DNA of 64,000 nucleotides, taken from assembly GCA_045650705.1 (NCBI GenBank), contig JAZRRK010000037.1, positions 12,151-76,150 of the forward strand, read 5' to 3'. How positions within the stretch are numbered: the stretch's first letter is position 1; each line of letters opens with the position of its first letter. Origin of the DNA: Clostridia bacterium. GTDB lineage: Bacteria; Bacillota; Clostridia; TANB77; CAG-508. Below are positions 10,381 to 10,626 of this stretch, one piece after another. The notes under the pieces were generated by a model that was not told the DNA's origin, did not search any database, and saw nothing but the letters and a program-made list of their open reading frames with translations. A program made the translations under genes and the position numbers.

Positions 10381-10626
10381 TTAAGCAATTAGTGGATTAT
10401 AAAATAATAGTAAAAATGTGAATGCGAATAATAATAGTAAGAATACTGCTAATATTACTAAAACTACTAATGCTGAGTGTATAACATCACTTTTTGTTTC
10501 AGGATTTCTTCCTACTGATTCTGCTACTTTTGCGCCAATTTGTCCAACTCCTATTCCTATTCCTAAAAATGTTGCTCCCAACATAATTCCTATACTCCAT
10601 AATGTTGCTACTAAAATTTGTTCCAT
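10381..10626 (-). CDS. F-type c-subunit-like hairpin protein lacking the helix-2 carboxylate.
   Basis: 81 aa. Helix 1 carries the GxGxGxG motif ([23 protein letters not shown]), the loop is RNPE, and the C-terminus is FYNPL. Helix 2 ([32 protein letters not shown]) has Ala at the position of the essential Glu/Asp and contains no acidic residue. Confidence 0.8.

Follow-up and report, generated by a model that had tools for sequence, protein, structure and literature searches.

An operon from a Clostridia bacterium was analyzed that combines genes for an F-type ATPase with genes for giant surface proteins. It is located within a window of 64,000 nucleotides (contig JAZRRK010000037.1 of the GenBank assembly GCA_045650705.1, positions 12,151 to 76,150 of the forward strand) and consists of 11 minus-strand genes that overlap or are separated by gaps of no more than 26 nucleotides (nt), in the order G1790, P493, c, b-delta, alpha, gamma, beta, epsilon, m176, P236, and G1174. 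At its center is an open reading frame (ORF) of 81 amino acids (aa) which, as judged from its alignments, is a genuine homologue of the F-type c subunit. However, the membrane-embedded Asp or Glu that marks an ion-binding c subunit is absent from the aligned sequence, and the corresponding position is occupied by an alanine, Ala60. We consider it rather likely that the operon encodes a distinct, F-type-derived rotary ATPase that performs mechanical work with an ion-blind c-ring, and the orthologous loci described below point to a widespread and apparently undescribed machine.

A previous sequence-only reading of the window had taken the 81-aa protein for a c-subunit homologue, and this is borne out by a match to PF00137 (ATP-synt_C) that scored 30.8 bits, above the gathering threshold of 24, and covered residues 12 to 73. 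The score is below every NCBIfam equivalog cut-off for the F0 subunit c (32.3 versus 71 bits for NF005363 and 26.9 versus 43.95 bits for TIGR01260), and the c model of the N-ATPase (alt_F1F0) gave 20.8 bits at a cut-off of 130.85 bits. The source databases name the homologues either hypothetical or "F-type H+-transporting ATPase subunit c." Clustering at 90% identity places the exact sequence in a group of six, of which it is the representative, and an exact look-up of the protein on contigs gave no match. A Shine-Dalgarno sequence, GGAGG, is present at positions 10634 to 10638, 7 nt 5' of the ATG on the minus strand.

The register of the protein was established by a phmmer search against all PDB chains, which returned c1 and c2 of Acetobacterium woodii (4bem), the c subunit of Ilyobacter tartaricus (1yce), and chloroplast c subunits (3v3c and 4mjn), with A. 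woodii c1 as the best match. From the R-x-P loop to the C terminus, the alignments with 1yce, A. woodii c2, and the chloroplast c subunit are free of gaps, and in these alignments Ala60 (codon GCA, 10447 to 10449) is opposite the ion-binding Glu of helix 2, which in I. tartaricus we take to be E65, following the numbering of the sequence-only reading. Since the helix 2 alignments contain no gaps and place Ala60 on the ion-binding Glu, the register proposed in that reading is correct, and so is its statement that Ala has replaced the essential carboxylate; profile alignment likewise places no acidic residue at this site. Val61 and Phe62 are opposite the Ser/Thr ligands of the PDB chains, as had been predicted, and Leu65 is opposite a Tyr. 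The protein contains no Asp or Glu beyond D47, in agreement with the earlier statement that helix 2 has no acidic residue past the loop-proximal Asp. A ring without a membrane-embedded acidic residue cannot transport H+ or Na+ by the known mechanism.

The hallmarks of c subunits that had been read from the sequence fared unequally. The glycine motif of helix 1 (G22/G24/G26/G28) and the RNPE loop (R40-N41-P42-E43-T44-K45) stood, since both are invariant or nearly so in the family, whereas the helix 1 Gln did not, since Q29 is replaced by Ile in 66 of 86 orthologues. In the gap-free alignment anchored on the loop, Q29 is also 2 residues off the Na+-binding Gln, and HMMER pairs the two only by introducing a 2-residue gap, so that the gap-free alignment to Na+-type c subunits asserted earlier holds for helix 2 but not for the pairing of this Gln.

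The loss of the carboxylate is a property of the family. A search of 5.8 billion proteins retrieved 744 relatives, and among the best 120 of these, which share 65 to 100% identity, almost all have Ala at position 60; one sequence has Thr, and another exception seems to be of low quality. When a single genome of each species was scanned for the RNPETKSD loop, it was encoded in at least 141 genomes, from which 80 loci were retrieved. Across 86 orthologues from Clostridia, Bacilli, and Mollicutes-like metagenome-assembled genomes (MAGs), position 60 is Ala in 54, Thr in 22, Ser in 9, and Val in 1, encoded by GCN, ACN, TCN, or GTG codons, and Asp or Glu in none. An exhaustive profile search of 1.84 billion representative proteins returned just 38 proteins at E <= 1e-10. 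No representative with the family loop and coverage of helix 2 has the carboxylate, which is true also of divergent branches, where the site is Phe, Ile, or Val; carboxylate-bearing c subunits were confined to lower-scoring matches.

The ion site of canonical c subunits ranks with the most strongly conserved regions of the protein. In 70 distinct c-like sequences, the lowest entropy was obtained for the loop (residues 33 to 47, 0.30 bits), followed by the outer-leaflet half of helix 2 (residues 62 to 79, 0.74 bits) and the glycine packing motif (0.78 bits), and the highest for the former ion-site segment (residues 48 to 61, 1.30 bits). The helix 1 glycines are invariant or nearly so in these sequences, and E36, G39, and the six residues from R40 to K45 are invariant in all 86 orthologues. 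Judged by these values, constraint on the c-like protein is shifted to the predicted F1-contact loop, to ring packing, and to the outer surface, and the low entropy of the outer half of helix 2 fits, but does not prove, the presence of protein partners on the ring surface. The dN/dS ratio of the c gene, determined by the method of Nei and Gojobori, was 0.036 relative to the nearest relative, L006 (dS 0.62), with a median of 0.18 over 991 pairs. The sequence-only reading had proposed to inspect orthologues in order to tell a conserved loss from a recent lesion; with 86 of 86 residues non-acidic, no Glu in close relatives, and dN/dS values that speak against decay, the comparison indicates that the loss of the carboxylate is ancient and under selection.

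The c-like gene is embedded among genes for a well-preserved F1 head. The alpha-like protein scored 409 to 430 bits on the NCBIfam alpha models, which is under all cut-offs, and its best PDB match was the Caldalkalibacillus alpha subunit 2qe7_A, of which residues 7 to 435 of 502 were aligned with residues 4 to 436. It lacks the last ~65 aa of canonical alpha subunits and has kept the N-terminal helix region and the P-loop; because the alignment begins at residue 4, the delta-binding N-terminal region is retained. The P-loop and the SVSR arginine can be read in its translation. The beta-like protein exceeds the cut-off of the atpD model TIGR01039 (471.3 versus 462.85 bits), its Walker A motif GGAGVGKT as well as GERSREG and DELSEED are all intact in the translation, and its best PDB matches were bacterial and engineered F1 beta subunits (385 to 389 bits), compared with 322 bits for the beta subunit of the Mycoplasma mobile G1-ATPase. 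The 98-aa protein encoded next to it is probably epsilon, an assignment that is weakly supported: the sole match of its family profile in the PDB was the epsilon chain 8yh8_H (E 0.43, in the N-domain region), and a match to PF02823 (ATP-synt_DE_N) is recorded for a divergent orthologue in locus L086.

The 276-aa stalk protein gave no sequence match in Pfam, NCBIfam, or the PDB, and a search of its family against the PDB returned coiled-coil noise only. An AlphaFold2 (AF2) model based on 41 homologues had a mean predicted local distance difference test score (pLDDT) of 77 and contains a helix at residues 2 to 75, helices at 120 to 200, and strands at 232 to 274 (residue numbers in the model, m49f6bc919fae, are protein numbers minus 1). 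It corresponds to an N-terminal transmembrane (TM) segment with a coiled coil of ~50 residues, then a linker that is disordered, and finally a domain in which a bundle of six helices precedes an alpha/beta unit. In a Foldseek search of the PDB with this model, the top 26 matches were all delta/OSCP chains or mycobacterial b-delta proteins (best E 4e-3, probability 0.97 to 0.98), and among 22 members of the stalk family, 3 matched PF00213 (OSCP; best E 2e-4) and 1 matched Mt_ATP-synt_B. On the basis of the Foldseek matches to delta/OSCP and the PF00213 matches of relatives, we conclude that the modeled protein is a b-delta fusion, in which delta is present and joined to a b-like stalk. The alpha/beta/gamma/epsilon head of a bacterial F1Fo enzyme, with epsilon weakly assigned, and its b and delta stalk, in the form of a fusion, are hence both represented in the operon. 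A membrane-anchored peripheral stalk would be sensible only if there is torque between a rotor and a stator.

No ORF of the operon matched PF00119, the family of subunit a, and the orphan m176, which is the operon's only polytopic membrane protein, has no detectable similarity to subunit a, as expected from the earlier claim that this subunit is missing. The m176 gene follows epsilon in 58 loci. Among 56 sequences, a Lys or Arg in TM2 is conserved in 46 and an Asp or Glu that opens the next long helix in 36, followed by conserved Asn, Gln, Asn, and Tyr residues. No similarity to any PDB chain and, among 22 members, no Pfam match was found. Two origins were considered for this protein, namely, a duplicated c subunit and a degenerate subunit a, and both were rejected at the level of detectable homology, as hhalign gave a probability of 1% for the alignment with the c family and of 0.2% for that with an E. 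coli subunit a sequence entered by hand. An AF2 model from a 6-sequence alignment had a pLDDT of 56, which is too poor for use. In the window, m176 is split into ORFs of 79 and 105 aa by a 1-nt insertion near position 5595 (ACACGG, compared to ACAGG in L006), and it is unsplit in this nearest relative (L006/P0393), present on 85 contigs. The exact 105-aa product is deposited in a protein database (P0391, source NCBI), and the source record therefore has the same split.

The four large proteins of the operon are all bitopic: each has a single TM helix and, at the N terminus, a cytoplasmic tail that is often basic. G1790 gave a weak FN3 match, and its Kineothrix orthologue contains collagen-like repeats and a Big_3_2 domain. 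P493 matched profiles of fibronectin FN3 domains with an E value of 1e-8. In its cytoplasmic N-tail, R13 is found in at least 90% of the sequences and F26 is invariant, a conservation not usually expected of a simple signal-anchor, so that the tail may make a contact inside the cell. P236 had no match in the PDB or Pfam, and G1174 had no informative domain match. The 1,174-aa ORF of G1174 stops at position 971; the frame changes near 975 to 1030, and homology runs on to the start of the window, with the continuation aligning with the homologues in L064 and L007. Relatives of this protein have 1,300 to 1,480 aa. Identification of the giant proteins as Gli, MIB, or MIP proteins or as named adhesins was considered and discarded, as only FN3, Big, and collagen-like repeats were found. 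The consensus promoter sequence upstream of G1790 is a candidate only, because shuffled sequences contain at least as many promoter-like sites in total. No convincing terminator was detected within the cluster. The features of the operon are listed in Table 1.

Table 1. Features of the operon, in the order of transcription; positions are those of the window
Feature	Positions	Strand	Description
Candidate promoter TTGACA-18-TATAAT	17526..17555	minus	Consensus scan, 12/12; ~50 nt 5' of the G1790 start
G1790, 1,790-aa giant surface protein	12102..17474	minus	First operon gene; N-terminal signal/anchor, repeated Ig/FN3-like modules
P493, 493-aa bitopic protein	10640..12121	minus	Cytoplasmic N-tail, TM, extracellular domain, low-complexity linker, FN3
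c-like subunit, 81 aa	10381..10626	minus	Third gene of the 11-gene operon; two-helix hairpin
b-delta fusion stalk protein (by model), 276 aa	9524..10354	minus	Fold search; OSCP matches in relatives
Alpha-like, 447 aa	8169..9512	minus	PF00006, 240.9 bits
Gamma-like, 260 aa	7390..8172	minus	PF00231, 91.6 bits (gathering threshold, 39.9)
Beta-like catalytic subunit, 452 aa	6030..7388	minus	PF00006, 233 bits
Probable epsilon, 98 aa	5741..6037	minus	N-terminal beta-sandwich domain only; conserved slot after beta
m176, orphan polytopic membrane protein	5220..5754	minus	~176-190 aa in relatives, ~5 TM helices
P236, 236-aa bitopic protein	4513..5223	minus	N-terminal TM and conserved ~200-aa extracellular domain; nearly all loci
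G1174, giant surface protein	1..4495	minus	Basic N-tail, one TM, large extracellular part; position conserved in most loci

To assess synteny, the 11 window products were compared by phmmer with all ORFs of 85 loci. The gene order of the window was recovered in almost every one of these loci, and of ~80 loci, most contain a full and intact operon. Its hosts are uncultured gut Clostridia, Lachnospiraceae, Oscillospiraceae, Erysipelotrichaceae, Coprobacillus, uncultured Bacilli, and MAGs labeled Mollicutes or Mycoplasmatota; cultured carriers, both within the Lachnospiraceae, are Kineothrix alysoides KNHs209 and a Merdisoma isolate. Complete genomes with the operon are those of K. alysoides (NZ_JPNB01) and a MAG chromosome (OZ006978.1). 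In two loci (L048 and L049) the ATPase module is upstream of G1790, and in three others (L068, L074, and L078) the c gene is ahead of G1790. Because these rearranged loci keep every component, the genes appear to be functionally linked and not accidentally adjacent. The cluster is of Firmicute type also in two MAGs assigned to the Muribaculaceae (Bacteroidota; L059 and L077), which are probably mis-binned contigs rather than cases of real transfer. No PADLOC defence-system match was obtained, and a tblastn search with the b-like protein gave no match in plasmid or phage collections.

Two further loci are more divergent in their arrangement. One cluster (L086 1-20255, JGI 3300013843) is TGA-recoded and was read with genetic code 4 or 25; it encodes a c-like protein with Phe at the site and has the same architecture. 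Its giant proteins are fragmented under code 11, and under code 4 ORFs of 1,831, 780, and more than 1,521 aa flank c, stalk, alpha, gamma, beta, and epsilon. A smaller cluster (L088 1-7659, Logan SRR17247039) contains three small ORFs, a carboxylate-free c, an alpha subunit of 419 aa, gamma, a beta subunit of 547 aa, and epsilon. A stalk gene is missing from this cluster, and housekeeping genes come next, so that carboxylate-free c-rings may exist in more than one kind of cluster.

Several features of the surrounding sequence were recorded. A patatin-like phospholipase gene is broken at positions 18254 to 19100 of the minus strand into ORFs of 51 and 155 aa and a middle piece. The three indels found within 20 kb, in m176, G1174, and this patatin-like gene, suggest either assembly errors or accumulating pseudogenes; the c gene is intact. 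Just upstream of the operon, a 93-aa ORF (17908 to 18189, minus strand) may encode a protein like the sporulation regulator SpoIIID, and if this is correct, the host would be a spore-forming Firmicute. The region from 22635 to 32614 on the minus strand contains large ORFs mostly without a Pfam match and is perhaps a conjugation or secretion-type island. Its products include a VirB4/TraG-type P-loop ATPase (29506 to 31467), and a C39-like peptidase domain is present in another (25251 to 26579).

Compared to canonical bacterial F1Fo ATP synthases (atpBEFHAGDC, above all the Firmicute and Na+-type enzymes of I. tartaricus, A. woodii, Bacillus PS3, and Caldalkalibacillus), the window operon has the same order of c, b(delta), alpha, gamma, beta, and epsilon. 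Also shared are the GxGxGxG hairpin of c, with its R-N-P loop and C-terminal NP(L/F); the atpD cut-off is exceeded by beta, and in the PDB, bacterial and engineered F1 chains are the best matches of alpha and beta. Unlike these enzymes, the operon has no a, its c lacks the carboxylate, one protein of 276 aa with a short coiled coil combines b and delta, alpha is shorter by ~65 C-terminal residues, epsilon consists of the beta-sandwich only, and five extra membrane or surface proteins are present. Membership in the N-ATPases is not indicated either, with scores below the alt_F1F0 cut-offs for alpha (354 versus 750 bits), beta (421 versus 752 bits), and gamma (29.6 versus 282 bits). There is a precedent for a hairpin without carboxylate in A. 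woodii c1 (4bem), in which one hairpin has Gln at the site. However, the site is missing from only a single hairpin of each A. woodii ring, and Na+ is still transported by that ring against a, whereas in the window the sole c gene of the locus lacks it. A b helix and delta in a single chain are likewise found in mycobacteria (7njn_d and 7nkd_d, which are among the Foldseek matches of the 276-aa model), but the mycobacterial enzyme adds b', a, and a carboxylate-bearing c, and the only likeness in sequence to the window stalk is given by the weak OSCP matches of 3 of 22 relatives. The FliI-FliJ-FliH complex resembles the proposed machine in being non-ion-pumping and in combining an F1-related ATPase, a gamma-like shaft, and a b/delta-like tether; it differs in that it is a homohexamer without a c-ring, and the window alpha and beta score far lower on FliI than on F1 models.

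The closest analogy is to the F1-like X0 ATPases of mycoplasmas, of which Type 2 is the G1-ATPase of M. mobile, which drives gliding, and Type 3 is the partner of the MIB-MIP system (PMC3369863, PMC11864180, PMC12994834). Type 3 was found to be needed for antibody cleavage by MIB-MIP, and for both types a transfer of force through the membrane to proteins of the cell surface has been proposed (PMC11864180, PMC12994834). These systems share with the window operon the F1-derived alpha, beta, gamma, and epsilon subunits, the absence of a and of an ion-translocating Fo, and an association with large surface proteins. The seven-gene mycoplasma clusters, however, contain no c; among their products are a 12-TM protein and one that has a signal peptide and, at its C terminus, 2 TM helices (PMC12994834, PMC11864180). 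The mycoplasma alpha has no N-terminal helix and there is no peripheral stalk, whereas the window has c, m176, a TM-anchored b-delta, four bitopic proteins, and an alpha that aligns from residue 4. The window alpha and beta remained under the cut-offs of MMOB1660/1670 and MSC_0619/0618 (382.2 versus 600, 391.5 versus 850, 299.6 versus 520, and 405.1 versus 570 bits), and in both hidden Markov model and PDB bit scores they are closer to canonical F1 than to the mycoplasma models. By its defining sequence features, the window operon is thus outside mycoplasma Types 2 and 3. GliD of Type 2 has been hypothesized to derive from b and delta (PMC11864180), and one may speculate that the TM-anchored b-delta is a plausible intermediate towards GliD. 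The mycoplasma papers regard the F1-like X0 ATPases as being without equivalent in other bacteria. No description of the present cluster was found in the searchable literature, in which only the mycoplasma work turned up.

In the mechanism that we propose, ATP hydrolysis by F1 would turn gamma-epsilon, which would grip the invariant RNPETK loops of the c-ring. The chemically "smooth" ring would then serve as a passive turntable or torsion element that moves against a stator, and this stator might be composed of the b-delta anchor and m176 together with at least one of the four bitopic proteins. Torque, or a power stroke of limited angle, would in this way cross the membrane and reach the giant FN3/Ig-rich surface proteins, and the output might be, for example, adhesion, movement, or surface remodelling. 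The formation of a ring, its rotation, and the assignment of rotor and stator parts are deduced here from sequence and gene content.

A number of points weigh against this proposal. That the c-like protein forms a ring, contacts gamma-epsilon, and rotates is something we infer, and a conserved gene neighbourhood is the sole link between the ATPase and the giant surface proteins. The N-terminal signal-anchors of the surface proteins are ordinary, and no motor-coupling domain could be recognised in them. The window copy is frameshifted in m176 and G1174 and may be non-functional, unless these are assembly indels. Finally, the conserved Lys/Arg in a TM helix of m176 (46/56) could hint at an unconventional coupling.

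A more specific version of the proposal, which we put forward only tentatively, is that of an undescribed class of ATP-driven rotary actuator, in which a full F1 with its stalk spins the ion-blind "turntable" to move or rotate giant FN3/Ig-rich surface fibres of Gram-positive gut bacteria. It would represent a new apparatus for motility, adhesion, or remodelling and the Firmicute ancestral type of mycoplasma Types 2 and 3.

Among the alternatives, an export or assembly motor comparable to FliI-FliJ-FliH fares best, although we regard it as unlikely. The c-ring and m176 would then be a docking platform or conduit for secreting, unfolding, or inserting the giant proteins, which the motor would not move once they are assembled. 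FliH is regarded as related to b and delta, so that the b-delta-like stalk can be counted in favour of such a motor, as can the position of the genes for the giant proteins, which flank the ATPase genes across loci, and the fact that F1 relatives serving protein export have been discussed (PMC11864180). However, all four large proteins have classical N-terminal signal-anchors suited to Sec/YidC, and Pfam and NCBIfam scans of the window ORFs revealed no export-gate homologues. Furthermore, a head of the heterohexamer type with full gamma and epsilon and a membrane-anchored stalk corresponds to a torque-resisting design.

Still less probable, in our view, is an unconventional ion or solute coupling, in which Thr or Ser at position 60 and backbone carbonyls would take the place of the carboxylate and the polar residues of m176 would form a novel minimal stator channel. 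About one-third of the c-like proteins do have Thr or Ser at this position. The conserved basic residue in TM2 of m176 (46/56), together with the D/E, N, Q, N, and Y in its later helices, would suit such a channel, as would its topology, predicted by the positive-inside rule to comprise ~5 TM helices with the N terminus outside and the C terminus inside. Against this, the site is Ala in about two-thirds of the family members and Val, Phe, or Ile in a few others; there is no other conserved polar residue in the membrane core of c; the segment of the former site is the least constrained stretch of helix 2; and m176 bears no detectable similarity to subunit a.

That the operon is a decaying remnant, namely, a pseudogenised second atp operon that has lost atpB and the carboxylate by drift, is suggested by the frameshifts in m176, G1174, and the unrelated patatin-like gene of the window but is hardly credible and, on the comparative sequence data, is contradicted for the family by the strong purifying selection on c, by a loop and glycine motif that are invariant across Bacillota classes, by the full operon found intact in most loci, by the intact catalytic motifs, and by the unsplit m176 of L006.

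Rotary ATPases are defined by the coupling of ATP chemistry to ion flow, for which a carboxylate-bearing c-ring moves against subunit a. If the proposed machine is real, it would mean that an F-type rotor can serve mechanical purposes alone, without the carboxylate and without subunit a. It would also provide a non-mollicute counterpart, and possibly an evolutionary intermediate, to the F1-like ATPases of mycoplasmas. Given the current "subunit c" labels, metabolic reconstructions based on gut MAGs would mistake the cluster for an ATP synthase. The presence of the cluster in cultured bacteria and in many abundant gut lineages makes its structure, its rotation, and the associated phenotype accessible to direct testing.

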